Shown here: positions 3,241 to 30,332 of the stretch, in pieces
How the letters are laid out: each line of letters begins with the position of its first letter
Position numbering within the stretch: the first letter of the stretch is position 1
NCBI GenBank assembly: GCA_026625185.1
Contig: CP113000.1
Coordinates: 495,622 to 527,621 of the forward strand
Source of the DNA: Thermodesulfobacteriota bacterium
Lineage (GTDB): Bacteria; Desulfobacterota; WTBG01; JAGOGO01
DNA length: 32,000 nt
Direction of reading: 5' to 3'
Program-made: the position numbers and the translations under genes
The notes under the pieces: model-generated
Databases searched by the model: none
The model's input: only the letters and a program-made list of their open reading frames with translations
What the model was told of the DNA's origin: nothing

Positions 3241-3295
3241 ACTCGTACTGCCCTTGAAGCGAAGAGGAAAAGGCAGCCTGTTCGAAGAAGGGGAT

Positions 3296-4404: not shown

Positions 4405-4469
4405 AGCTAACGCTGCGGTTGCACAAGGACCGTTCGTGACCACGGGGTTTGTGAGCCGTTGCGTTAGGA
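4405..4469 (+). repeat. integron attC site
   Basis: AGCTAAC (4405-4411) ... GTTAGGA (4463-4469). CTAACGC pairs with GCGTTAG (7 bp). An inner stem CGGTT/CACAA vs TTGTG/AGCCG has one bulged G. Length 65 bp. It starts 7 nt after the stop of the upstream gene, and the next gene starts 25 nt after it. Confidence 0.7.
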
Positions 4470-4493
4470 ACTTTATTATAATGGAGGTATTTA

Positions 4494-5411
4494 ATGGCCA
4501 ATCTTTTTTGGAAGACCCCCAAAGGTGTCTCAGCATTGTTAGCTACTCCCTTTAAGTCTGAAGAAGAATTTGAAAAAATAATCTTCGAGTCATCTGAAGT
4601 CCTAGAAGATATTTTTCTTCTGAAACGTCAGGTTAGAGGAGGTGCAAAGCCAGGTATTCCTGATATTCTCGGTCTAGACAGTGATGGTAATATCTGCATA
4701 ATTGAGTTGAAGAATACAACAGTTGATGCTTCAATAATTCCACAAGTACTACAATATGCCTTCTGGGCGGAACGAAACCCAGATTCAATCAAAAGTCTTT
4801 GGCTGGAAAAAGAAGAAAGACCAGATGATCTTGAAATAAGCTGGGATAACCTCCAAGTTAGGATTATTATTATTGCCCCTTCCATTCTTCGGTCAACCCT
4901 TGGTCTTGTCAATAAGATCAACTACACCGTGGATCTCATTGAACTGAAAAGATGGGTTGAGGGTGATAGCCAGTTTATGCTGGTGAATAAACTTGAAGAA
5001 GTTGAAAAAGTGTCAAAAGCAAAACCAGTAAGTGGCCTTCAGCACTATGATGAGATGTTCTACAAAGGACACTATAACAGCAAGAGCGCAGAACACTTTA
5101 TAAGGTATATCAGGGAGGTGGAGAAACTTGTCCATAGCGAAAAGTGGCCACTCGAGACCAAATTTAATAAATCCTACTGCGGGTTCAAAGCAGGTTTTTT
5201 CAATGCCTTTGGCATTAAATGGATTGGGTCAAAGACCTTTGCATTCTTTTTTAAATTGCCAAACAAAGAAGCAGAACGAATTAAAAAGGGCATGACCAAG
5301 TACGAGACTCCATGGAAGGAGGCAGTTTATTACATTGATCCAACAAAGACTAAAGTTGTCGACTTCAAGCCATTGTTCGAGGCCGCATTCAAGAGACTTA
5401 CAGGAGATTAA
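4494..5411 (+). CDS. NucS/DUF91-like PD-(D/E)xK nuclease with unrelated C-terminal domain
   Basis: SD ggagg at 4483-4487. 'GIPDILGLDSDGNICIIELKNTTVDASIIPQVLQYAFW' matches D ... E-x-K ... Q..Y of NucS/RecB-like nuclease domains. The C-terminal ~130 aa (KFNKSYCGFKAGFFNAFGIKWIGSKTFAFFFKL) resemble DUF4268/DUF5655-type modules (tentative). Confidence 0.65.
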   Translation: MANLFWKTPKGVSALLATPFKSEEEFEKIIFESSEVLEDIFLLKRQVRGGAKPGIPDILGLDSDGNICIIELKNTTVDASIIPQVLQYAFWAERNPDSIKSLWLEKEERPDDLEISWDNLQVRIIIIAPSILRSTLGLVNKINYTVDLIELKRWVEGDSQFMLVNKLEEVEKVSKAKPVSGLQHYDEMFYKGHYNSKSAEHFIRYIREVEKLVHSEKWPLETKFNKSYCGFKAGFFNAFGIKWIGSKTFAFFFKLPNKEAERIKKGMTKYETPWKEAVYYIDPTKTKVVDFKPLFEAAFKRLTGD

Positions 5412-5560: not shown

Positions 5561-5621
5561 GTCGTTAGGCCCCTAATATGTTTTTTTGTGGAAACATTTT
5601 ATTAATAAAAGGAGGCTTTAC

Positions 5622-6716
5622 ATGCCGCTAGAAATCGGTATCTGGCGAATTGATAGTGGCCTGAAACAAGTGGACTTTGGGCCGCTGGATATTGAGTCGC
5701 GCTTGGAAGATATCCTAGACAACAATATTGGCATTGCTTCACCGAACTGGCATGTTATAGGGCGACAGGTACGCACTGATCATGGTTTTTTTATCGACTT
5801 GCTCGCAATCGACCGAGACGCTAACCTCGTCGTGATTGAGCTCAAACGTGATAGGACCCACCGCGATATAGTAGCCCAAGTGCTCGACTATGGTTCGTGG
5901 GTTCGGGATCTCAAGGATGACCGGATAGCTCAGATCTTCGATGAATACCAGAAACGATGGCATCCGGACAGAATTATGATTTCCATTGATGAGTCGTTCA
6001 AAAAGAAGTTCGGTATCGCAATGCCAGATGAAATGAATTCCTCTCATGAACTTGTGGTGGTAGCATCGAGTTTGGATCCGAGCACGGAGCGTGTAGTTCG
6101 CTACTTAGCTGACGAATATGATGTTCGTATCAATGCAGTTTTCTTCCGAGTGTTCCGTGATGGCGACCGCGAGTACTTGAGCAGGGCATGGTTCCGTGAT
6201 CCTGCTGAAGTGAGTGCAGGCATGGACGAAGAGACCGTCGCCGGTGAGTGGAACGAGGAGTACTATGTATCCTTCGGTTACGACACGGAAGTTGTGCGCG
6301 ATGGACTTAATAGGGGCTATCTCGTCGCTGGAGGCGGTTCGTGGTACTCGAAGACGCTTGCGATGCTCGAGCTCGGCGCACGCATTTGGGTGAATGTGCC
6401 CGGGTTAGGCTATGTCGGAGTTGGTAAGGTCACGCAAGAGATGCAGCCGGTCGACGAGTTTACCGTGACCGATCAGGCCGGCAAACAGGTGTCGATCATT
6501 GAAGTATCACCGGCAGCAGCATCGCTTAGGCGAGCGAAGGATGATCCTGAAAAGGCAGATTACTTGGTACGGGTCGAATGGCTGAAAACTGTCGACCCAA
6601 ACCAGGCCATCCACGAGAAAGGATTCTTCGGGAACCAGAACTCCGTTGCCCGGCCTCGTTCGCCAAAATGGAACCATACAGTAGAGCGTCTCAAAATACG
6701 ATTTGGGGTCGAGTAG
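5622..6716 (+). CDS. NucS/DUF91-like PD-(D/E)xK nuclease with C-terminal beta-rich (reader-like?) domain
   Basis: I prefer the ATG at 5622 (SD aaaggagg at 5608-5615) over the listed 5586 start. 'FIDLLAIDRDANLVVIELKRDRTHRDIVAQVLDYGSWV' is the same nuclease signature as in 4494-5411. The C-terminal 170 aa (GGGSWYSKTL..GARIWVNVPGLGYVGVGKV ... YLVRVEWLKTV) are of unknown function. The gene is visibly GC-richer than its neighbours. Confidence 0.65.
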   Translation: MPLEIGIWRIDSGLKQVDFGPLDIESRLEDILDNNIGIASPNWHVIGRQVRTDHGFFIDLLAIDRDANLVVIELKRDRTHRDIVAQVLDYGSWVRDLKDDRIAQIFDEYQKRWHPDRIMISIDESFKKKFGIAMPDEMNSSHELVVVASSLDPSTERVVRYLADEYDVRINAVFFRVFRDGDREYLSRAWFRDPAEVSAGMDEETVAGEWNEEYYVSFGYDTEVVRDGLNRGYLVAGGGSWYSKTLAMLELGARIWVNVPGLGYVGVGKVTQEMQPVDEFTVTDQAGKQVSIIEVSPAAASLRRAKDDPEKADYLVRVEWLKTVDPNQAIHEKGFFGNQNSVARPRSPKWNHTVERLKIRFGVE

Positions 6717-7090: not shown

Positions 7091-7462
7091 ATGGACATCA
7101 CGGTAAAACATCTTGAGGAAGCATGTTTTGATCTCGCGCGCTCAACAAAAGGGGAGATGCGCCCCGTTGATATATCCGAGATAACAGACCTATCGAAAAA
7201 ATTTCTTGCAGTCGCGCTTCAGGAAGAAGAGATCGGCAGAGAACTCGGCGTAACAATCCCTTTACTAACAAGGGCGGTACATTATTTGCGGGAAGCACAT
7301 GCAATACCGCCAATGGGGGGAGACATAGTCTGGTTTAAGAATATGCTTACGGCTGTCCTTGAGATTGCCTGTCCCAATGCTGGCCTTGACGGTCAAGGAA
7401 AGGCCTTCTTGCGCGATCTCCTCAAGGGGATTGGCTCTTTTTTGGATGACAATGAAACCTAA
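7091..7462 (+). CDS. hypothetical protein
   Basis: 123-aa ORF with an unbiased helical-looking sequence, in the same cassette as 6805-7062. The stop codon lies inside an ACCTAAC inverse-core-like heptamer (7457-7463). Confidence 0.5.
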   Translation: MDITVKHLEEACFDLARSTKGEMRPVDISEITDLSKKFLAVALQEEEIGRELGVTIPLLTRAVHYLREAHAIPPMGGDIVWFKNMLTAVLEIACPNAGLDGQGKAFLRDLLKGIGSFLDDNET

Positions 7463-7471
7463 CAAGGGAAG

Positions 7472-7567
7472 GTCCCTAAAATTATAAAATTCTTAACAAC
7501 GGGGTTTTATGCCGACTAAAATCAATTATATGGGTGTTATATAGAAACCATATAAGCATTGTTAGGT
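7472..7567 (+). repeat. attC-like site, family-1 copy C
   Basis: gtccctaaaattataaaattCTTAACAAC (7492-7500), a ~50-nt variable hairpin (ggggttt ... aaacc), then atataagcattGTTAGGT. The core at 7561-7567 fits GTTRRRY exactly. Confidence 0.55.
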
Positions 7568-7585: not shown

Positions 7586-8068
7586 ATGGTCCTTTTTCTC
7601 AAAAACCTCTTATTCACGTTGGTCGTTCCGGGCACAGTCGGAGTCTTTCTCCCCCTAAAGATAGCCGGGGGTCATTCTTCCGCGTCAGGATTGGCCTTCG
7701 CGACCGCCTGCGCTTTTTTCGCTATAGCCACATCGATTTATTTGTGGTGCGTGTGGAATTTCGCTGTGTTTGGGCGTGGCACACCAGCGCCAATTGATCC
7801 TCCCAAGAAACTCATCATGCGCGGGCTCTATCGGTACACCCGAAATCCGATGTATTTGGGAGTCCTCACAGCGATCTTGGGTTGGGCAATCCTTTTTAGA
7901 GCTACGACCTTGGTCTTCTATGCCATGGTGGTGGGAGCTTGCTGCCATCTGTTCATTGTCTTCTATGAGGAGCCCCATCTTCAACGTACATTCGGGAAGG
8001 AGTACGACGATTACCGCGCTCAGGTGAACCGGTGGCTTCCAAAACCCTGGCACAAGTTGGGAGCTTAA
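7586..8068 (+). CDS. isoprenylcysteine carboxyl methyltransferase (ICMT/PEMT)-family membrane methyltransferase
   Basis: 160 aa with 4-5 TM helices. 'GLYRYTRNPMYLGVL' is the family signature, and it is followed by 'EEPHLQRTFGKEYDDYRAQV'. Confidence 0.7.
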   Translation: MVLFLKNLLFTLVVPGTVGVFLPLKIAGGHSSASGLAFATACAFFAIATSIYLWCVWNFAVFGRGTPAPIDPPKKLIMRGLYRYTRNPMYLGVLTAILGWAILFRATTLVFYAMVVGACCHLFIVFYEEPHLQRTFGKEYDDYRAQVNRWLPKPWHKLGA

Positions 8069-8139
8069 AAATTATAAGGCCTCCCGTTGTCACGAGAAAA
8101 AACTTTGGTTGGAGTATACACTCAAAAAAATTGTTAGCA
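8062..8139 (+). repeat. attC-like site, family-1 variant (type 2 left arm)
   Basis: The right arm aaaaaaattGTTAGCA (core 8133-8139) matches family 1. The left arm cttaaaaattataaggcctccc is shared with 10725-10738. ataaggcctcc is complementary to ggagggcctcat at 8146-8157. Confidence 0.4.
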
Positions 8140-8188
8140 CGTTGTGGAGGGCCTCATATGGTGTGTAAATTCGATTTTTCGGCATCCC
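8124..8188 (+). repeat. 65-bp repeat, copy 1 (shared upstream element of two protease cassettes)
   Basis: Aligns with 9017-9082. There is a 22-nt perfect block aaattcgatttttcggcatccc (8167-8188 = 9061-9082) plus the shared blocks ggagggc and tcatat. Confidence 0.7.
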
Positions 8189-8268
8189 CCAGGGGGGTTA
8201 AATTCTATAATTCCATTAATTCTATTCAGCCGCCCGTTAAATTTGTGGCTGATATTTTAGGAGGGTAA
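8158..8268 (+). CDS. possible 36-aa upstream ORF (MVCKFDFSASPRGVKFYNSINSIQPPVKFVADILGG)
   Basis: The ATG is preceded by ggaggg with a 6-nt spacer. Its stop (8266-8268) lies inside the SD of the downstream protease gene. 'KFDFSAS' is also encoded in the second repeat copy, but without a start codon. Confidence 0.3.
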   Translation: MVCKFDFSASPRGVKFYNSINSIQPPVKFVADILGG

Positions 8269-8273
8269 CAACC

Positions 8274-8894
8274 ATGACTCTTATCATTGCAGCTATTTGT
8301 AGGGATGGGGTACTAATCAGATCCGATAAAAGAAGAAAAGTCATGAACTCATCAGGGGAGATTATATACTATGACGATATGGACAAAGTTTTCGTCTCTG
8401 CAGATAAAAGAACTATTATCTACAATCACGGAATCAACGTAATCAAAGGCAAGTCGTGGTATGACCTTGCTATCAGAGCAGAAAATGCAATAAGGAAAGA
8501 AAGTGCTGATGATATCGATACAGCACTTAACAAAGTCGAAAACACCATATCGGCTGAAGTGCTTGCCGAAATATCAAATAATCAACTCGACGATTTCTGT
8601 GCATTTGTAGTGATTCTCAAGACGAGCGGAAACCAGTGGCAGGCAAAGGATATTTCTTGGAAACGTGGAGAAGGCGTCAAAAAGACTCCCCTCGGAAGGA
8701 TCATTTTATCAGGCTCAGGTGAAAAATACATCAAACGGGACAAAAAATGGTGGAATAACAATTACTGGGCATCCCTTAGTATGGACGAAGCCAAAGGGCA
8801 GATTGAAAGGCTTTACTCGATGGCTATCAAAAATCAAAACAACGCTCAAGGAGACGAATTCTCATCGTCATTTAATGATGTGATGGTAACTTGA
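8274..8894 (+). CDS. stand-alone proteasome-beta/HslV-like Ntn (Thr) hydrolase
   Basis: Strong SD aggaggg. 'M-TLIIAAICRDGVLIRSDKR' puts Thr at position 1 after Met removal and Asp at 17. 'DKVF' supplies the Lys (about position 37), and 'ILSGSGEKY' matches the GSG motif of proteasome beta subunits. No alpha-subunit or ATPase partner is adjacent. Confidence 0.6.
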   Translation: MTLIIAAICRDGVLIRSDKRRKVMNSSGEIIYYDDMDKVFVSADKRTIIYNHGINVIKGKSWYDLAIRAENAIRKESADDIDTALNKVENTISAEVLAEISNNQLDDFCAFVVILKTSGNQWQAKDISWKRGEGVKKTPLGRIILSGSGEKYIKRDKKWWNNNYWASLSMDEAKGQIERLYSMAIKNQNNAQGDEFSSSFNDVMVT

Positions 8895-9016
8895 CCCAAC
8901 AAAATGATTGGGTTGACCTTGCCCTACTCGGTAATTGTCTTTTAGTGGTTGTGCAAGACGAAAGAAATAACCCCCTTGAAACAGAAGTTCGAGGATTACA
9001 CATTTAATACAAACCC

Positions 9017-9082
9017 AAAAAAAATTTTGGCGCATTGAGGAGGGCTCATATAGGCCCGGCAAATTCGATTTTTCGGCATCCC
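9017..9082 (+). repeat. 65-bp repeat, copy 2
   Basis: See 8124-8188. The ATG of the small ORF is ATA here and the reading frame is shifted. Confidence 0.7.
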
Positions 9083-9102
9083 GCCCTCTTTTTCGGCAAC
9101 AA

Positions 9103-9304: not shown

Positions 9305-10369
9305 ATGTCGAAACACAGGCGGTTGAAAAATTTTATACCTGCTCCAAAGCAGGTTGTATCTACCGTAGTGCCTAAGATTAACATGGTTGAGTCATTATAT
9401 GATTCGATCATTGAAGGCAATGAGTATGGAAGCATTGTTTCCGTAATTCCAAAGCCAGAGATTGATCTCATTGATGAAATTATTAAAGGCCTTAAAGCTG
9501 TACAATTCATTAGGTTACGACCTTGTTTGGCTTATATTGGGAATGTGATCCGATCTGATGACTATTCAGGCATTGTAACAGCGGATGATTTGCCATTTGC
9601 CGAAATGATAAAAGGAGTTCCCAAAGATACCGAAAGCGTAGATGTCTTTCTTGCAACGATGGGTGGCTCCGCTCATCAGGTAAGCAGATTTGTAAATTTC
9701 TTACGGGCACGATTTAAAGAAGTAGACTTCCTTGTCCCATCATTCTGTATGAGTGCTGGCACTCTATTTGCTCTTTCGGGTGATCATATTTGGATGAATC
9801 CTACTGCTTGCCTTGGTCCTATCGATCCACAAGTGCCCACAAAAGATGGAAGATTCGTCCCAGCACAGGCTTTGCTTCTTCTCATTAGCCAATTACAAGA
9901 ACAAGGCGATGAAGCTTTAAAGAACAAGGGGGCAGTGCCATGGACAGCTGTACGAATTATCGACAGCCTCGACAAGAAAGAATTGGGTGACGCAATTACT
10001 GCCTCGACCTATTCCATTACAATGGCAACCCAATTCCTTATTCAGTACAAATTCAAAAATTGGCAAACTAGGGAAACAAGCCAAATACCCGTCACGGATC
10101 AATATAGGCAAACTCGAGCTTTTGAAATCGCGTCAGCTCTAGCTGCACATGATCGATGGAAAAACCATGGACATTCCATCTCAAGAGATGTATTATGGAA
10201 TGAGATAAAGCTCCAGATTGACCACCCATCACCGGACTTGGAGAAGGCGATATCTAAGCTGTGGGCTCTATTTTTTTGGGTTTTTGACAAAACTCCAATT
10301 ATTAAACTAATAGTCTCGGAAAATTATCGTTTTGCTCGGCATTCCATCATTTTGGAGAAGAAACTATGA
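9305..10369 (+). CDS. SDH-family (serine dehydrogenase proteinase) ClpP/crotonase-fold serine protease
   Basis: 354 aa, SD ggaga. 'VDVFLATMGGSAHQVSRFVNFLRARFKEVDFLVPSFCMSAGTLFALSGDHIWMNPTACLGPIDPQV' matches the SDH/SppA-like core, including the nucleophile Ser in 'MSAGT'. Confidence 0.7.
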   Translation: MSKHRRLKNFIPAPKQVVSTVVPKINMVESLYDSIIEGNEYGSIVSVIPKPEIDLIDEIIKGLKAVQFIRLRPCLAYIGNVIRSDDYSGIVTADDLPFAEMIKGVPKDTESVDVFLATMGGSAHQVSRFVNFLRARFKEVDFLVPSFCMSAGTLFALSGDHIWMNPTACLGPIDPQVPTKDGRFVPAQALLLLISQLQEQGDEALKNKGAVPWTAVRIIDSLDKKELGDAITASTYSITMATQFLIQYKFKNWQTRETSQIPVTDQYRQTRAFEIASALAAHDRWKNHGHSISRDVLWNEIKLQIDHPSPDLEKAISKLWALFFWVFDKTPIIKLIVSENYRFARHSIILEKKL

Positions 10370-10605
10370 TTGAAAAAAATCTCCTAATGCAGCTCGGTTG
10401 GTCGGAAGACCTTATAGATGAAGTAACTAGGGTCTCCAACGAACTTTCGCGAAGCCAACCCTCGCTACCTCAAATCGGACAGACTCCATCGGCTCTTTAC
10501 TCCGACACTTGTGATTCACTTTTCTATAATAGCGACCAATCAAACACAACCGATCAGCTGATTTCGGCCCATAGAAGCCAGATCAAACCATCTCACGGTG
10601 CATAA
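10366..10605 (+). CDS. hypothetical 79-aa protein, translationally coupled to the SDH protease
   Basis: The ATGA overlap with the upstream stop (10366-10369) indicates coupling. The sequence is Ser/Gln/Thr-rich and probably disordered after an N-terminal helix. No recognisable domain. Confidence 0.45.
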   Translation: MIEKNLLMQLGWSEDLIDEVTRVSNELSRSQPSLPQIGQTPSALYSDTCDSLFYNSDQSNTTDQLISAHRSQIKPSHGA

Positions 10606-10724
10606 TGGGCGATCAGCTGGGAAGATAATTTGTTTTCTCATAACGCGTGACCGCGATTCATACCAGCAGGATTTCTATAGACACTGCGTAGAATTTCACA
10701 TACTATCAAAGAGAAGCCAAACAC

Positions 10725-10782
10725 TTATAAGGCCTCCCATTTTCAGGAGAAAAGAATTCTCCTAAAAGCAAAAGGAGGGAGG
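10725..10782 (+). repeat. type-2 repeat / attC-like remnant
   Basis: ttataaggcctccc(a)tt(t)tca(g)gagaaaa matches 8072-8100. Perfect inner hairpin aggagaa-aagaa-ttctcct. cctccc is complementary to gggagg (10776-10782). Confidence 0.35.
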
Positions 10783-10858
10783 AAACTTGCCAAATCGGAA
10801 TGGGCGTTTTTAGCTATTTCTGGCTAATTTTATATATTTTTGCAGGACTAAAGGCCTT

Positions 10859-11131
10859 TTATCTTTTTTCTCCTCTTTCGGTTGCCCCTTCAGTAGACTT
10901 TTCAGTCGCTGCTTCCAGCCTCTCTATTGCTTTCTCTACTTCTGCCCGTTTTTCTTCAGGAATAAGCCCCCGCTTCGAGCTTGCTTACCAAAAGTAGTTT
11001 CATCAAGCGGTTATCTATATGAACCTCTTGGGCAACTTCACTCTCTACTTTATTTATCTTCGGTGCCCCAGCACTATCCAATATGCTTTTAGCATTCGTT
11101 AACTGAATAGCTTCAATTTTCGAATCCCCTC
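10859..11131 (-). pseudogene. frameshifted C-terminal gene fragment of unknown family
   Basis: The minus strand reads ...GDSKIEAIQLTNAKSILDSAGAPKINKVESEVAQEVHIDNRLMKLLLVSKLEAG. It then continues in the +1 frame as LIPEEKRAEVEKAIERLEAATEKSTEGATERGEKR*. No start codon is present. Confidence 0.3.
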
Positions 11132-11405
11132 ATAAATTTCCAACCTGTGTAAAATTGGTCTAGTCAAACTCAAACGAAAAGTGTGCCTGGGGTCTTAGGG
11201 GGGTCTACACCCTTGTAGAAACTAGTCCCTTGAAGAAGAGTAGTGCCGGTGAGAATAGAGCCCTTTGTTGAGGTAATGGTATGAGTACTGGCCTGACTAC
11301 TTTTCAGTTTGTTACACAAAAAAAGTGGGGACAATGTGGGGACAAAATTGGTTGGGAAACAAAAAAGGACTTGGCTGTATCTAGCTAAGTCCTTAATTTT
11401 GTTAA

Positions 11406-11479
11406 CGCGCCCAGGGTGACTCGAACACCCAACCTACGGATTCGTAGTCCGGTACTCTATCCAATTGAGCTATGGGCGC
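11406..11479 (-). tRNA. tRNA-Arg (anticodon ACG)
   Basis: The reverse complement folds as a cloverleaf: acceptor GCGCCCA/TGGGCGC, D-loop AATTGGATA, anticodon loop CT-ACG-AA, T-arm GGGTG-TTCGAGT-CACCC, discriminator G. CCA is not encoded. There is one C/T mismatch at the top of the anticodon stem. Confidence 0.93.
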
Positions 11480-11545
11480 AAAAAAATTAATTTATAATAA
11501 CATTTTTTACCCTTTTCGTCAATATCTTATTCAAAGATATTTTCC

Positions 11546-25902: not shown

Positions 25903-26110
25903 AATCTGAAATTTTAACAGGGGTGTTATGCCGATCCGTATAACACACCTACAAAAACGGTGGGTATTTTAAATAAACTGTAATAATCAACCATTATGGC
26001 TCAATTTTAAGATGCTTTTTAGGTGTCTTATATGGATTGGGTAACCAATTTGGGGACTTATATTTATCCGTATAATCACTGTTAAGTTCCATCAAATTCA
26101 ATCGTTATAG
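25903..26110 (+). repeat. family-1 repeat copy E (long, ~208 bp)
   Basis: The left arm aatctgaaatTTTAACAGgggtgttatgccgat matches copy C closely (cTTAACAACggggttttatgccgac). The right arm ccatcaaattcaatcGTTATAG (26104-26110) resembles copy D (ccaatataactatcGTTATGC). It contains the direct repeat ATCCGTATAAYCAC at 25934 and 26066. Confidence 0.45.
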
Positions 26111-26118
26111 GAGGGCGT

Positions 26119-26970
26119 ATGACTATCTATGAACAGTTGTTAGATTACTGTGAGGCACAGAAACGAATATATGGAAAGGTGACCTTCACATCAGGTGAAT
26201 TGAAAGACGCTCTTCTCGAAAGCCATGGCACTCCCAGAACCAGCACCCTTCCACCAGACTATTGTTACAACATTATGAACGATGGTATTCATTTCAAGCA
26301 TCATCTATTTGAACAAATTGGAGAAACCTACAAGTTCTTGGGTCCAGGCTATCTGTATTCCGGGGTCATTACCTGGAAAGGTACCCCAGTGGGTGCTTGG
26401 CAAGAAGGCAGCTTCTTCTTATGGAAATTGTTTCGGAAGGTAAATCGCAGGTATTACAGGCCCGAGTTGAGGCCAACAGAAACGAGCGAGGCAAGTCCAG
26501 GTACTCTTCAAGAGGTGATTGAGCGTGGTAATATTTCTCCTGGCTCTTTGCATACGGTTGATAGCCCGGCTCCAGAAGAAAACCTTTTGCTTCCCTTTAT
26601 TGATGTTCGGGAGGTCCAGAGAAAGGACGCAACAGTTTCAAGAATCATAAGAGACACCAAGCAAACAAAATTGATTAAGCAACTCTACAAACATTGCTGC
26701 CAGGTTTGCGGAATCGCATTGCAGACATCTGCCGGTCCCTATGCTGAAGCTGCTCATATCGTTCCCCTTGGCCAACCGCATAATGGATCAGACACAGTCG
26801 ACAATATTCTATGCCTTTGCCCAAACCACCATGTTCTATTCGACTATGGCGCATTCTCAGTCAGCGATTCTCTTATCCTATTGGGAATGCCCGGAAAATT
26901 ATCCGTGCATCCACAACATATAATCAGCAAGAAGTACCTTGCGCATCACAGAAATCGAAACATTAAATAA
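26119..26970 (+). CDS. HNH_2-type endonuclease with uncharacterised N-terminal domain
   Basis: SD aggaggg. The C-terminus 'CCQVCGIAL ... YAEAAHIVPL ... DTVDNILCLCPNHHVLFDYGAF' is the HNH_2 motif seen in type IV (modification-dependent) restriction enzymes. The N-terminal ~180 aa (PPDYCYNIMNDGIHF ... FEQIGETYKFLG) are unassigned. Confidence 0.8.
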   Translation: MTIYEQLLDYCEAQKRIYGKVTFTSGELKDALLESHGTPRTSTLPPDYCYNIMNDGIHFKHHLFEQIGETYKFLGPGYLYSGVITWKGTPVGAWQEGSFFLWKLFRKVNRRYYRPELRPTETSEASPGTLQEVIERGNISPGSLHTVDSPAPEENLLLPFIDVREVQRKDATVSRIIRDTKQTKLIKQLYKHCCQVCGIALQTSAGPYAEAAHIVPLGQPHNGSDTVDNILCLCPNHHVLFDYGAFSVSDSLILLGMPGKLSVHPQHIISKKYLAHHRNRNIK

Positions 26971-26979
26971 ACACTTGGC

Positions 26980-27037
26980 ACCTAACCAAAGGATTCACCG
27001 GTTGGCTTAAAGCCGCCGGTGATCCTTGCAGTTGGGC
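26980..27037 (+). repeat. integron attC site (canonical, 58 bp)
   Basis: ACCTAAC (fits RYYYAAC, 26980-26986) ... GTTGGGC (fits GTTRRRY, 27031-27037). AAGGATTCACCGG pairs with CCGGTGATCCTT with one extrahelical T. Apical stem ggctt/aagcc. Confidence 0.85.
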
Positions 27038-27062
27038 AGTAATTTAAAGCGAATTAATTTAT

Positions 27063-27908
27063 ATGGGTCATCATTATCTACCACAATATTATTTAAAAGG
27101 ATTTACAGAAACGCCCGATAATATGTTATGGGCTTATGAAAAAGGTACTGGAAATAAATTTAATACTCAAATCAAAAGCTTAGCCAATATTACAGATTTT
27201 TATTCGGAGGAAACCGAACAATATTTAGCAAATGACATTGAAGGTCCAGCAAATGAGGTTCTTGATAAAATTCGTAGTCGGCATTTAATCAGTGAAGAAG
27301 ATAAAAATACTTTTGCAGAGTATATGGCAGTAATGTGGAAACGTGTACCTCGTGCGAAAGAATATTTAAAAAACATGGCACCTCGCCTTGCCGATGAAAT
27401 AGGAAAAAAATTGAGCACTGATTTGAGTTATATAGTTGAGCAAGCGCCGGAAAAAACGGAGTTTATAGAAAAGCGACAAAAGGAAATCGACGATATTTTA
27501 GCAATTTATGCCACAGATCCCCCTAAAGATATTTGGCTGGGAAATATTCCTCCAGAACGAACACCAAGAATTGTTGAGGCAATGAAGGCAATGACTTGGA
27601 CATTCTGGGAATTTGATCAATATCCAGCATTTTTAACATGCGATAATCCGGTTTTCTATTTCACGTGGATGGGTGTTGGAAAAAAAGAATCAGAGATTTC
27701 CTTTCCAATTTCAAGTCATATTGTTTTATGGGCGACATGGAGAGCAGATTTGCCTCGTAATTTCATAACGGCTTCTTCCCAAATTGTAAAGGAAATGAAC
27801 AGAAGAATTGTTCACAATGCGAACAGGTTTGCTTTTCATTGCAGAGATGAGCATTGGATAGTTCCTTTTATAAAAAAGGAAATTTGGAAGCTGAATCGAA
27901 TTGCGTAA
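27063..27908 (+). CDS. DUF4238 domain protein
   Basis: The N-terminal 'HHYLPQYYLKGF' is the DUF4238 signature. 281 aa, a single-gene cassette between two canonical attC sites. Confidence 0.8.
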   Translation: MGHHYLPQYYLKGFTETPDNMLWAYEKGTGNKFNTQIKSLANITDFYSEETEQYLANDIEGPANEVLDKIRSRHLISEEDKNTFAEYMAVMWKRVPRAKEYLKNMAPRLADEIGKKLSTDLSYIVEQAPEKTEFIEKRQKEIDDILAIYATDPPKDIWLGNIPPERTPRIVEAMKAMTWTFWEFDQYPAFLTCDNPVFYFTWMGVGKKESEISFPISSHIVLWATWRADLPRNFITASSQIVKEMNRRIVHNANRFAFHCRDEHWIVPFIKKEIWKLNRIA

Positions 27909-27925
27909 TTTTGAATTTAATGTTT

Positions 27926-27992
27926 GCCCAACCAGGCGTTTCACCGACCCACTAGGGCTTCGGCGAGTGGGCCGGTGAACTAATCGTTCGGT
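27926..27992 (+). repeat. integron attC site (67 bp)
   Basis: GCCCAAC (27926-27932), unpaired spacer CAGGCG / CTAATC, and a 14-of-15-bp stem TTCACCGACCCACT / AGTGGGCCGGTGAA. The core GTTCGGT (27986-27992) has one deviation from GTTRRRY. Confidence 0.8.
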
Positions 27993-28003
27993 GAATAATT
28001 ATA

Positions 28004-28699
28004 GTGTCCTTTAAAATGAATGCATATGCTTTAAATCTCGCAGTTCTTGAAGGTCATGGAAATGTAGAAAAAAATGCTTTTGAACTAAGCTATGGTTTAT
28101 TTCATGGTACAGCTTTTGGTATCGCTCTTGATTTGTTTCTGACTGCTGCCCACGTTTTCAAAGATGCTCAGGGAGATGGCGAAGTAGCCTTGGCTCGGCT
28201 TACACCCGGCCACTTCCATGCTCAGACGGTAAGGGATTTTGAAATTTTTGATGATATTGACCTCGCTCTTCTGAATTGTAATAACCTGTCTGCAGAGATA
28301 TTGCCATTTAACTTTACACCCCTCAATTTTCTTGTTGATGTTTTCACTATGGGTTATCCCTTTGGATTCGAACCTCCAGTTTACCACCTTAGGGCCTTCA
28401 AAGGGCATATTGTTACCCGTCGAGGCTTGACAAGCTTGCCGGGAGTTCCTCTTGGATATGAACTATCGTTTGTGCCACCACCGGGATTATCGGGTGCCCC
28501 GCTTCTGACACTCTTGCCTGACGGTTCTCCAGTGATAGCAGGAATGGTACTTCAGCATCATATTGCAGAGTACCGCAAACGCCGAATGGAATTAGGGATA
28601 GCTCTCGATATAGGAGAAATACTCACTTTGGAAAGCCGAATTGTTGGGGGTAATATAGCTGAACGACTTTTTAATCGAAAACGTCTTGTTCGCAAATGA
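28004..28699 (+). CDS. cytoplasmic trypsin-like (S1/Trypsin_2) serine protease
   Basis: Catalytic triad motifs in the correct order: 'FLTAAHVF' (His), 'DIDLALL' (Asp), 'PPPGLSGAPLL' (Ser). No signal peptide. The start is either GTG 28004 or ATG 28016. Confidence 0.7.
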   Translation: MSFKMNAYALNLAVLEGHGNVEKNAFELSYGLFHGTAFGIALDLFLTAAHVFKDAQGDGEVALARLTPGHFHAQTVRDFEIFDDIDLALLNCNNLSAEILPFNFTPLNFLVDVFTMGYPFGFEPPVYHLRAFKGHIVTRRGLTSLPGVPLGYELSFVPPPGLSGAPLLTLLPDGSPVIAGMVLQHHIAEYRKRRMELGIALDIGEILTLESRIVGGNIAERLFNRKRLVRK

Positions 28700-28737
28700 A
28701 AGCAATAAAGACAGACATTGAGAACACCGAACAAACT

Positions 28738-28788
28738 CATTAACTCGGACTGGCAATTTCGCTGCGCTCCATTGTCATCCGGTTATGC
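28738..28788 (+). repeat. integron attC site (short, 51 bp)
   Basis: CATTAAC ... GTTATGC (TAAC/GTTA paired). cggaCtggcaat pairs with attgtcatccg with one bulged C and one mismatch. 13-nt loop. Confidence 0.65.
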
Positions 28789-28814
28789 GGAGCTTTATAT
28801 TAAAAAAAGGGAAT

Positions 28815-28922
28815 GTCCCTAAAATCATAAAATTCTTAACAACGGCTCCTTATGCTGAATTTTTTTATAAATTAGATAATACATTTTGGTTTTTATAGGG
28901 ACCAATATAACTATCGTTATGC
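28815..28922 (+). repeat. attC-like site, family-1 copy D
   Basis: gtccctaaaatcataaaattCTTAACAAC (28835-28843), a ~60-nt AT-rich variable region, then gggaccaatataactatcGTTATGC (28916-28922). It begins 26 nt after the preceding attC. Confidence 0.55.
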
Positions 28923-29584
28923 TAAATCAAAAACCCGATAAATGCGTGCCTGCCACTGATTTGTGTGCTCATAGCGATTCTGCTGAGCGCTCGGAGTACC
29001 TGCGGCATGGTCGAAAACTTGAGTATTTTACCATCGGTTGGAACATAGTGGAGGCTGGTGTTGCTGTTGTTGCCGGCTGGTTTGCCGGAAGCATTGCTTT
29101 GGTAGGTTTTGGAGTTGATTCGCTCATAGAGAGTATTTCCGGTTCAATACTTCTTTGGCGTTTATCCTCTCCCGTTCATGACGAGAGTCGTGAGCGGATC
29201 GCCATCAAACTCGTGGGTATCAGTTTTCTTATTCTTGCCGCATATATCGCTTTCGATGCTACCCAGTCCCTCCTCGTTCATGAGCCGCCGAACGCAAGCA
29301 TTATCGGCATCGGTCTATCGGTCGCCTCGCTCATCATCATGCCTATCCTCGCTCGCGCAAAACGCCTATCTGCGATAAATCTGGAGAGCCGCGCAATGAA
29401 GGCCGACTCACGCCAGACCGATTTTTGTGCCTATCTTTCGGCTATTTTGCTCGGCGGCCTTATGCTTAATGCACTTTTCGGTTGGTGGTGGGCCGACCCC
29501 GTGGCAGCGCTGATTATGGTGCCAATTATTGCGCGGGAAGGCTTTGAAGGCTTGCGCGGGGAGGTTTGTAATGACTGTCGTTAA
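28919..29584 (+). CDS. cation diffusion facilitator-type cation transporter (TMD-only form)
   Basis: ATG at 28919. 'AGSIALVGFGVDSLIESISG' and 'KADSRQTDFCAYLS', with 5-6 TM helices. It lacks the usual cytoplasmic C-terminal domain. Visibly GC-richer than the neighbouring cassettes. Confidence 0.7.
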   Translation: MLNQKPDKCVPATDLCAHSDSAERSEYLRHGRKLEYFTIGWNIVEAGVAVVAGWFAGSIALVGFGVDSLIESISGSILLWRLSSPVHDESRERIAIKLVGISFLILAAYIAFDATQSLLVHEPPNASIIGIGLSVASLIIMPILARAKRLSAINLESRAMKADSRQTDFCAYLSAILLGGLMLNALFGWWWADPVAALIMVPIIAREGFEGLRGEVCNDCR

Positions 29585-29659
29585 GATGCGACAAAACTAT
29601 TCGTGGAAAAATTTCTTTTCAAAGTACAGACGGTATAATTATTATTAGGAGAGAAAGAA

Positions 29660-30073
29660 ATGCAACTATCCAAGCTCATCGCGAGAATGGCAGCCGTAAT
29701 ATACCTGTCGGCGAGCCTGGGGGCTTTTTTCAGCGCCGACTATTATCGCAAGGTCTCAGAGGATCTGTTCAACAACGCAGGACTGACCTACCTGGCCGGT
29801 TTCATGACCATCATCATTGGATTGCTCATCGTGCATTACCACAATATTTGGGCGAAGAACTGGACGGTTCTGGTCACTTTTCTTGGCTGGCTCGCTCTGC
29901 TGAAAGGGCTCCTCTTAATCGTCTGCCCGGGGTTTATGCATAGCTTATCCGAAGGAATGCTCACAGAATGGGGTTTAAAAATCTTCCCATATACTTCCTT
30001 TTGTCTGGGGTTATTGTTTGGTTATTTCGGGTTTTTGTCGGCCACGCCTCCTAACCAATCACTCCGGAATTAG
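29660..30073 (+). CDS. hypothetical 4-TM membrane protein
   Basis: 137 aa, SD aggagag. Four hydrophobic helices. No attC-like site separates it from the CDF gene, so the two are probably one cassette. Confidence 0.5.
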   Translation: MQLSKLIARMAAVIYLSASLGAFFSADYYRKVSEDLFNNAGLTYLAGFMTIIIGLLIVHYHNIWAKNWTVLVTFLGWLALLKGLLLIVCPGFMHSLSEGMLTEWGLKIFPYTSFCLGLLFGYFGFLSATPPNQSLRN

Positions 30074-30332
30074 GGATGGGAAATGCGTTGAAGGTTCGTT
30101 CTCCGCTTGCACCCGATGAACCGGTGACGCTAATGCCTCAAAAAAGCTGTGGGAGCACGTCAAGTGCGCCGGGATAAACCAGCATGGACTATGGAATGAG
30201 GAGGGAAAAGTGATAGGATTGGACAACGTGCCCAACCTTATGCTACAATAACTTTTAATGAGAATAAAACGATCGAGATAAAATTAATGGTATTGATTCA
30301 GCTTCGCTTCTCGTTCGGCAGAAGGAAAAATA

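Follow-up and report, generated by a model that had tools for sequence, protein, structure and literature searches.

A predicted proteasome-like N-terminal-threonine hydrolase of a partnerless, probably cassette-spread family in a Thermodesulfobacteriota genome

Proteasome-type threonine peptidases are usually pictured as gated, ATPase-fed cytoplasmic machines. Can a single gene, placed among small co-oriented units of a bacterial chromosome, encode a peptidase of this type that works without such machinery, and how would it have come there? This question is raised by an open reading frame (ORF) at positions 8274..8894 (+ strand) of a 32,000-nucleotide stretch of Thermodesulfobacteriota DNA (assembly GCA_026625185.1, contig CP113000.1, positions 495,622 to 527,621), the whole of which is called the window below. 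An original prediction, made from the letters of this DNA, had described the gene as an orphan proteasome-beta/HslV-like protease in a mobile cassette, preceded by an overlapping small ORF. The reading favoured here, with a probability of roughly 70%, is that the gene encodes a catalytically competent proteasome-like N-terminal-threonine (Ntn) hydrolase of an unnamed family, having no dedicated ATPase or alpha-type partner; that the family has been spread on gene cassettes, of which the copy in the window is a decayed one; and that its role is accessory. This reading is drawn from sequence comparison and a structure model.

The gene encodes 206 amino acids (aa), with the N-terminal sequence MTLIIAAICRDG (MTLIIAAICRDGVLIRSDKRRKV), and its designation as a proteasome-beta/HslV-like Ntn hydrolase combines the ORF itself, an AlphaFold2 model, Foldseek and hhalign comparisons, and residue conservation. 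The candidate catalytic residues are Thr2, which directly follows Met1, Asp18, which becomes Asp17 after loss of Met1, and Lys38, which lies within the motif D-K-V-F; to these are added Gly53 and the G147-S148-G149 loop, preceded by S146 and followed by Y152. Every residue named in the original prediction (Thr after Met, Asp17, the Lys of DKVF, and SGSG..Y) is therefore found in the protein. The gene has a GC content of 41%, compared with 46-49% in the recA-alaS and glmU-glmS core genes, and a sigma-70 scan found no promoter-like site from 8069 to 8273.

The AlphaFold2 model, built on a 27-sequence alignment, has a mean predicted local distance difference test (pLDDT) of 91.3 and a predicted template modelling (TM) score of 0.88. 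Its secondary structure elements follow the order of six beta strands, two long helices (H1 and H2), four strands, a pair of helices (H3/H4) and a final strand, which is the alpha-beta-beta-alpha sandwich with the proteasome-type order of strands and helices (S1-S11, H1-H4). Foldseek comparison of the model with PDB gave 92 matches at E<=1e-3, the best 50 of which are all 20S beta or alpha subunits, HslV or Anbu (best E 3.4e-7, TM 0.55-0.64, identity 9-18%). In BFVD the top viral match is a phage protein annotated as 'proteasome beta type-2 subunit' (E 3.4e-9). Placement in a non-Ntn fold, named in the original prediction as an outcome that would overturn it, is not borne out by the confident model and its proteasome-type matches, and the fold claim holds. 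The assignment of the predicted fold is considered secure; membership of curated families at the sequence level is not reached.

Profile comparisons point in the same direction at lower strength. The reference profile (A3) was assembled from mature HslV, CodW, PsmB, PrcB and Pre2 sequences that may contain small errors, so that the hhalign statistics are supporting only: the family alignment (A2) matched it with E 1e-4 and a broader family profile (A4) with E 1.7e-3. The register of the alignment places T2 on Thr1, D18 on residue 17, K38 on Lys33 and G147-S148-G149 on G128-S129-G130. About 30 of the 36 weak PDB matches of the broader profile are proteasome subunits by description, and PF00227 is the Pfam family most often weakly matched by family members (four of 58, best E 5e-4). 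TIGR03690 (bacterial 20S beta) aligned with the N-terminal 47 residues of the window protein with E 0.034 and 13.9 bits, below its cut-off of 191.9. The window protein has no PF00227 match and reaches no curated gathering cut-off, and single-sequence searches of Pfam, NCBIfam and PDB gave nothing significant. As curated thresholds are unreached, the homology stands on structure prediction together with weak profile signals. Weak matches to Abhydrolase_2, thioredoxin-like proteins and designed helical repeats were dismissed as chance.

The hydrolase belongs to a family that is nearly all metagenomic. Searches of a 5.8-billion-protein collection found 27 close relatives with 42-73% identity; an exhaustive library yielded 44 cluster representatives, and the family profile retrieved 137 proteins. 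A close relative, as defined by the close-relative profile (A1), occurs in one of 185,579 species genomes and in eight metagenome contigs. The only named nr entries among the cluster members looked up are two hypothetical proteins from Verrucomicrobiota metagenome-assembled genomes (MDA0294302.1 and MDA1046494.1). No Pfam domain is present in any family member found, and NCBIfam, PHROG and PADLOC matches are likewise absent for the family.

Four residues, D18, K38, H52 and G147, do not vary among 58 members that share 16-60% identity with the query; conservation reaches at least 90% at M1, T2, L3, G53, N55, E126 and W129. Because the catalytic residues are conserved across 58 diverse members, they are no chance pattern. 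The equivalents of Asp/Glu17 and Lys33 are found in the invariant, hhalign-aligned D18 and K38, and the equivalent of the Gly128-Ser129-Gly130 loop in the aligned G147-S148-G149, of which G147 is invariant. The Thr/Asp/Lys signature proposed for this one protein thus extends to the family as a whole, in agreement with the hhalign register. An (N/H)-H-G motif including His52, together with Glu126 and Trp129, makes up a set of family-specific conserved residues outside the canonical site as it is described in the literature (PMC8665760; PMC4792962). His52, which stands beside Gly53, Glu126 and Trp129 probably shape a specialised substrate pocket.

The N-termini of the family are consistent with exposure of the threonine. 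Thr is a permitted P1' residue for methionine aminopeptidase, and Escherichia coli HslV starts with Met-Thr and is matured by removal of Met. Among the N-termini of 170 family proteins, Met-Thr was found in 129 and Met-Ser in one. In eleven apparent extensions Met immediately precedes Thr, which suggests over-called start codons. In a Verrucomicrobiota group (P0020, P0025 and its cluster, P0029, P0081) extensions of 29-52 residues replace Met; each combines a basic n-region with a hydrophobic core (a Kyte-Doolittle value of about 3 across 10 residues) and ends in A/V-x-A right before Thr. Signal peptidase I follows a -3/-1 rule, and these variants, with their signal-peptide-like extensions, are apparently exported. 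Short leaders precede Thr in two more members (MPLTLA|T and MLSIAMST|T); a short propeptide of this kind could be removed by autoprocessing. The threonine is always placed to become residue 1, which is a hallmark of Ntn hydrolases and argues for the enzyme being active. One member, P0027 (300 aa; L010 845-1747), is longer by an unrelated C-terminal stretch of about 100 residues, which may be a frameshift or fusion and runs into the start of a gene for a type IIG-like methyltransferase.

The hydrolase gene is an orphan in all contexts inspected. No AAA+ unfoldase, alpha-type subunit or second proteasome-like gene lies within the 32-kb window; the only ATPases in or near it are RecA, PilT and, directly beyond its upstream edge, an SMC-like AAA_23 protein. 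About ten independent contexts of relatives contain no HslU, alpha subunit or any recurrent neighbour, and all-against-all BLAST of the relatives' immediate neighbours found no protein in common. The lack of HslU, another ATPase or an alpha subunit nearby, as originally described, is upheld for the window and these contexts, in which homologues linked to HslU, the other stated ground for doubt, do not occur. A 207-aa neighbour in L007 was considered as a paralogous second subunit; it is unrelated, as are all other neighbours mutually.

The relatives are found in various genomic surroundings. In Verrucomicrobiota the gene is flanked by GH106/rhamnosidase genes and AraC regulators and runs opposite to the glycoside hydrolase (GH) genes, and this setting hints that the protein may have an extracytoplasmic role in polysaccharide use. 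The Verrucomicrobiota signal-peptide and short-leader variants (L003/L016, L011/L017, L015, L018) are chromosomal and have no attC sites. Another relative adjoins a PIN/AF2212 toxin-antitoxin pair, a SMODS nucleotidyltransferase and resolvases, a further one a type IIG-like methyltransferase with an antitoxin, and others stand beside mutS or near thiI; type III restriction genes are also among the neighbours. Of the distant members, one adjoins a TIR protein and an ORC/CDC6-like ATPase, one lies between a type I restriction system and a ParB/PAPS-reductase cluster (with a BrxP/SspD-like PAPS reductase), one is moron-like inside a prophage, and one is placed among housekeeping genes. At L020 8001-10394, in two contigs, the distant member P0149 (about 18% identical) is followed by a 536-aa ORC/CDC6-like AAA+ protein with a weak PADLOC mad8 match, on an island with TIR and FRG proteins. 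In that branch P0149 and this protein may work as a system of two genes; P0155 lacks the pairing.

The relatives' layout is that of integron gene cassettes. In six of them (L007, L008, L010, L012, L013 and L014) a core site GTT(G/T)G(G/T)(T/G), of the GTTGGGT type, occupies positions -14..-8 from ATG, and the spacing from core site to ATG is 7 nucleotides (nt) in all six. In the four whose 3' flank is readable (L007, L008, L012 and L014), CCCAAC abuts the stop codon (ACTTGACCCAAC) as the complement of the 5' core site. These four have imperfect hairpins of 60-86 nt (fold z -1.7 to -3.4), which end at GTTATAT, GTTGCGC or GTTAGTT, and at ATTGGGG in L007. The P0013 cassette occurs behind two unrelated upstream genes in L008 and L009, with near-identical attC sites before it.

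The copy in the window has counterparts of both borders. On the 5' side a Shine-Dalgarno-like sequence, AGGAGGGT (8259..8266, +), was recognised from the sequence and the leader alignment; its GGAGGG ends 8 nt before ATG. The GGAGGGT at 8260-8266 occupies -14..-8, the slot of the relatives' attC core site (window taGGAGGGTaacaaccATG, L012 tcGTTTGGTaacaattATG), and is found there instead of a core site G|TTRRRY. The Shine-Dalgarno sequence would have arisen by mutation of a former core site. On the 3' side a putative attC remnant (8894..8918, +) consists of an R''-type half-site ACCCAAC (8894-8900), beginning with the last base of TGA and conserved in the four relatives with a readable 3' flank, and a 26-nt hairpin GACCCAACAAAATGATTGGGTTGACC (8893-8918; dG -7.9, z -3.1); the wider region around it has z -1.6. 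The window copy may be regarded as a fossilised cassette with a collapsed attC, and would illustrate how cassettes become fixed, the core site turning into a ribosome-binding site.

Several observations weigh against the reading of the gene as an active, cassette-spread proteasome-like hydrolase. No curated-family threshold was reached by any single-sequence or profile search, and hhalign assigned a probability of only 58% to the family alignment and of 16% to the broader profile. Ser148, the equivalent of Ser129, is Asp in many distant members, so that Ser is a subfamily feature, and the proteasome Asp166 is apparently replaced by Gln188. Around the oxyanion-hole glycine (Gly47 of the proteasome, at the end of the strand before H1) the register is ambiguous: Gly53 ends the strand 47-53 in the model and is at least 90% conserved, yet hhalign pairs it with HslV G49, not G45. 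Connectase is a reminder that proteasome-like folds can be monomeric ligases, and a defence role is guilt by association, the protein having no PADLOC or PHROG match. As to the cassette, no intact attC was found at the 3' end of the window gene, where the flanks fold no better than shuffles, and an integrase domain is absent from all ORFs of at least 90 aa in the window and in 1.7 kb upstream (L001). This absence is consistent with a CALIN (an attC cluster that has no integrase of its own) or with an integrase beyond the window. With eroded borders and no integrase, the window copy is therefore probably no longer mobile. The mobile cassette originally proposed keeps its cassette origin, which the six relatives with core sites and the four attC hairpins support, and has probably lost its mobility.

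Under the reading preferred here, a proteasome-like Ntn hydrolase without a partner, Met1 would be removed by methionine aminopeptidase, with Thr as a permitted second residue; in the Verrucomicrobiota branch, cleavage behind AxA by signal peptidase I would take the place of this step. Both routes would expose Thr as a free N-terminus, whose hydroxyl would attack an amide bond while Lys38 and Asp18 relay protons as in the 20S proteasome; water would then resolve the acyl-enzyme. The default guess for the substrate is a peptide or an unfolded protein. The gene would spread as a compact, promoterless, single-gene integron cassette, and in the Thermodesulfobacteriota genome it would sit in an integrase-less array by recA, among candidate defence cassettes. 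The role is taken to be accessory, with defence- or stress-related proteolysis as the leading guess, made from the neighbourhood.

The closest structural matches are the 20S beta subunits (yeast beta E 3.4e-7; Plasmodium beta1 TM 0.64), which have the arrangement of Thr, Asp and Lys in common with the hydrolase. In contrast to the 20S proteasome, whose four rings are arranged as alpha7-beta7-beta7-alpha7, the hydrolase has no alpha subunit, most members have no autocatalytic propeptide, and Gln188 apparently takes the place of Asp166. HslV (ClpQ) shares the alpha-beta-beta-alpha Ntn fold (Foldseek E about 1e-5 to 1e-4) and the Met-Thr start without a long propeptide, and Thr1, residue 17, Lys33 and GSG align. 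The hydrolase is also compact like HslV, ending soon after the last strand without an H5 helix. It differs from HslV in its length (206 aa compared with about 175 aa), a structural identity of about 10-15%, an additional hairpin segment preceding Lys38, about 8 residues inserted behind the G53 strand, and the invariant His52 and conserved Glu126 and Trp129 of its family. Moreover, the family is found on cassettes, prophages and islands, not in a conserved heat-shock operon, and some members are apparently exported. HslV, a double hexameric ring, works with the AAA+ unfoldase HslU, whose gene normally shares its operon, whereas hslU is adjacent in none of the contexts inspected here. Anbu structures appear at Foldseek ranks 41-50. 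The Anbu operon contains ATP-grasp, alpha-E and transglutaminase-like genes, and Anbu has a long H5 helix at its C-terminus, whereas these domains occur in no context of the hydrolase, whose model ends in a beta strand and has no H5.

The original prediction held that a stand-alone proteasome-like protease was undescribed. This was overstated, as Anbu, BPH, connectase and 22 further stand-alone families of proteasome homologues have been described (Fuchs, Alva and Lupas, 2021; PMC8665760). The 22 families keep Thr1 or Ser1, Asp17, Lys33 and Gly47 and have no co-occurring AAA+ partner; two, PPH and AAH, are also found in phages, and propeptides are stated only for proteasome beta and HslV (PMC8665760). 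The hydrolase family resembles them in being orphan, patchy and in part mobile, with the active-site residues kept. Since stand-alone proteasome homologues are established, it is no new type of system. The survey searched NCBI nr (PMC8665760), from which the hydrolase family is nearly absent, being almost entirely metagenomic. One of the 22 is PHD, 'proteasome homolog of Deltaproteobacteria' (PMC8665760), and the host of the window is deltaproteobacterial in the old sense, its AlaS falling into a 90%-identity cluster with proteins named Thermodesulfobacteriota or Deltaproteobacteria; the hydrolase family may be identical with one of the 22, such as PHD. None of the representative accessions of the 22 families is among the hydrolase cluster members looked up, a comparison made by accession only. 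The paper makes no mention of integrons or signal peptides (PMC8665760). What is undescribed is the family itself, unless it is one of the 22, its carriage on integron cassettes, and its signal-peptide variants. Compared with integron cassettes and CALIN, the relatives match in having a promoterless ORF and a core site 7 nt before ATG, four of them with attC, whereas the window copy has a 26-nt hairpin, a GGAGGGT core, a flanking repeat of about 68 nt and no IntI in 32 kb.

A partnerless family that keeps the full catalytic signature would widen the range of the proteasome fold, and as a 0.7-kb cassette family it would add to the orphan proteasome homologues. Many integron cassettes are now turning out to encode phage defence, and this small gene is a testable candidate when cassettes are screened by function. 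The boldest form of the proposal is an unlikely one: it takes the family as the first proteasome-like family on integron cassettes, acting as an ATP-independent, self-sufficient threonine protease or specific amidase that forms a one-gene module of defence or counter-defence, with a Sec-exported sister branch in which signal peptidase unmasks Thr. If true, the exported branch would be the first extracytoplasmic proteasome-type hydrolase.

The alternative that survives best, though improbable in itself, is that the protein has a proteasome-like fold and acts as a specific amidase, transpeptidase, ligase or small-molecule or glycopeptide amidohydrolase, perhaps as a monomer, with a site formed by His52, Glu126 and Trp129. 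These residues, one invariant and two at least 90% conserved, are all outside the canonical proteasome site, and about 8 residues are inserted behind the strand ending at G53. PF09894, the N-terminal domain of connectase, has a weak match in one member (E 0.006), and connectase itself is a precedent, insertions having been judged incompatible with ring formation (PMC8665760). The Verrucomicrobiota variants look exported and have GH106/rhamnosidase-AraC surroundings; the periplasm has no ATP, and an unfoldase partner is present in no context. On the other side, the top structural matches are proteolytic beta subunits and HslV, not connectase, and the Thr/Asp/Lys triad with the GSG loop is of the peptidase type. 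The glycoside hydrolase neighbourhood is moreover confined to one lineage, where the hydrolase gene is oppositely oriented.

Rather doubtful, and a little more so than the former, is a single-gene effector against phages or mobile elements, or a counter-defence protease of a mobile element, that would destroy a specific invader or host protein. The array in the window includes PDC-S18 and PDC-S11, with a DUF2357/PD-(D/E)XK and AAA_23 pair upstream; relatives stand beside a PIN toxin, SMODS, restriction-modification genes of types I, IIG and III, TIR and a BrxP/SspD-like PAPS reductase, and one is moron-like in a prophage. Chromosomal integron cassettes have been reported to encode many defence systems (bioRxiv 10.1101/2024.07.02.601686). 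However, PADLOC gave no match for the window protein and six relatives, and a PHROG match is absent. The integron-cassette literature compared here, a small sample, makes no mention of proteasome, HslV, Ntn or protease. Some members are found among housekeeping or carbohydrate genes, and accessory genes on cassettes are in general expected to be associated with islands. A defence role is worth testing, and nothing more is claimed for it.

A 36-aa ORF (MVCKFDF...ILGG; 8158..8268, +), called as a gene by the Joint Genome Institute (JGI), of which a metagenome contig (sample 3300028916) matches the window, precedes the hydrolase gene and had been proposed as an upstream ORF or as a sign of translational coupling. 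It has a Shine-Dalgarno-like GGAGGG at 8146-8151, 6 nt before its ATG, and its TAA (8266-8268) directly follows the GGAGGG of the main gene (8260-8265) and precedes the ATG at 8274. The Shine-Dalgarno-like motif, ATG and first ten codons of the small ORF all lie inside the upstream copy (8122..8190, +) of a direct repeat of about 68 nt, CAAAAAAATTGTTAGCACGTTGTGGAGGGCC..CATATGG..AAATTCGATTTTTCGGCATCCC, which was found by alignment and contains a core-like site GTTAGCA at 8132-8138. The downstream copy (9015..9084, +), 894 nt away, has ATA in place of ATG, contains no ORF and is non-coding DNA; an exact 22-mer of the repeat occurs twice, with 0 expected by chance. The small ORF is furthermore the tail of a 78-aa open frame that starts within the preceding gene, as is typical of chance ORFs, and it is not conserved with the gene in the six cassette relatives. 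Because its start region is in a non-coding repeat and the 7-nt leader of the relatives leaves no room for it, it is probably not a gene. That it is a real leader peptide regulating the hydrolase gene or coupled to it is very unlikely, the suitable Shine-Dalgarno spacing, the position of its stop and the JGI annotation notwithstanding, and the proposal of an upstream ORF is not supported.

The repeat of about 68 nt was also considered as a functional attC and rejected, since the flanks of the gene (8066-8165 and 8950-9090) fold no better than shuffles. A second repeat of 44 nt (TTATAAGGCCTCCC...) occurs at 8062-8105 and 10715-10758, after two gene ends. Neither repeat shows an attC-like fold (z about 0 to -1.5), and the two could be decayed attC sites, elements like miniature inverted-repeat transposable elements or repetitive extragenic palindromes, or regulatory elements.

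Least probable of all, and very unlikely, is that the gene is a normal hslV paralogue or codes for a bacterial 20S beta subunit, with the genes for its partner HslU, or alpha subunit and ATPase, at another place in the genome. HslV has this fold and triad and likewise begins with Met-Thr, but the identity in structural alignments with HslV and beta subunits is 9-18%, TIGR03690 gives 13.9 of 191.9 bits and PF00227 is unmatched, HslU or an alpha subunit is adjacent in none of about ten contexts, the signal-peptide variants could not meet a cytoplasmic ATPase, and a close relative in one of 185,579 species genomes argues against a housekeeping gene.

The array around the partnerless hydrolase consists of co-oriented single-gene units, all on the + strand, with attC-type sites between them. 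Canonical sites are found at 4405..4472 (+; AGCTAAC ... GTTAGGA, between two upstream single-gene units; dG -32.5, z -4.5), at 7457..7567 (+; ACCTAAC ... GTTAGGT, 111 nt; strict R''/R' scan, z -3.6), which divides the preceding unit from the PEMT/ICMT-like unit, and, by its fold, at 26980-27037 between + strand units; the z values of the three range from -3.6 to -7.3. Copies of an attC-like repeat family are present at 3270, 6715, 7450, 25990 and 28790. A strict RYYYAAC/GTTRRRY scan gave two clean sites, and the others were hand-curated from repeats and folds. A relaxed scan (NNNNAAC...GTTNNNN with folding) gave 15 sites compared with 7-23 in shuffles, and was discarded as uninformative. The array ends near tRNA-Arg(ACG) (11405-11480, minus strand), which is the only Rfam match, and recA.

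The immediate neighbours of the hydrolase gene are a PEMT/ICMT-family membrane methyltransferase upstream (7586..8068, +; Pfam) and an SDH-type ClpP-like serine protease downstream (9305..10369, +; PF01972, 2.6e-12). Both are absent beside the relatives and are not conserved partners. A 79-aa ORF (10366..10605, +) overlaps the stop of the SDH-type protease by 4 nt (ATGA). Two unrelated proteases, the Ntn hydrolase and the PF01972 protein, thus adjoin in the window, and this pairing is not seen at the relatives.

Two PADLOC candidates, both with a weak NucS_C-like nuclease domain, are encoded two and three units upstream of the hydrolase, with canonical or attC-like sites between: PDC-S18 (4494-5411, +; full length, E 1.8e-134) and PDC-S11 (5586-6716, +; E 1.7e-129). 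Further upstream (590-2950) is a 786-aa protein with DUF2357 and PD-(D/E)XK (PDDEXK_7) domains, itself preceded by the AAA_23 SMC-like ATPase of at least 783 aa (L001 1-2314). This pair looks like a nuclease/ATPase defence-type module and has no PADLOC match.

A second cassette-like array is found at 25990-30100, beyond the recA-to-glmS core genes. It includes an HNH endonuclease with DUF7225 (26119-26970), a DUF4238 protein (27063-27908), a trypsin-like peptidase (28004-28699) and a cation-efflux protein (28886-29584), and its units are separated by the attC at 26980-27037 and by copies of the repeat family common to the first array. Between the first array and the tRNA, about 0.8 kb (10606-11404) contains a single short called ORF and a tandem-like GTGGGGACAA motif near 11310, and could be the edge of an integrated element.

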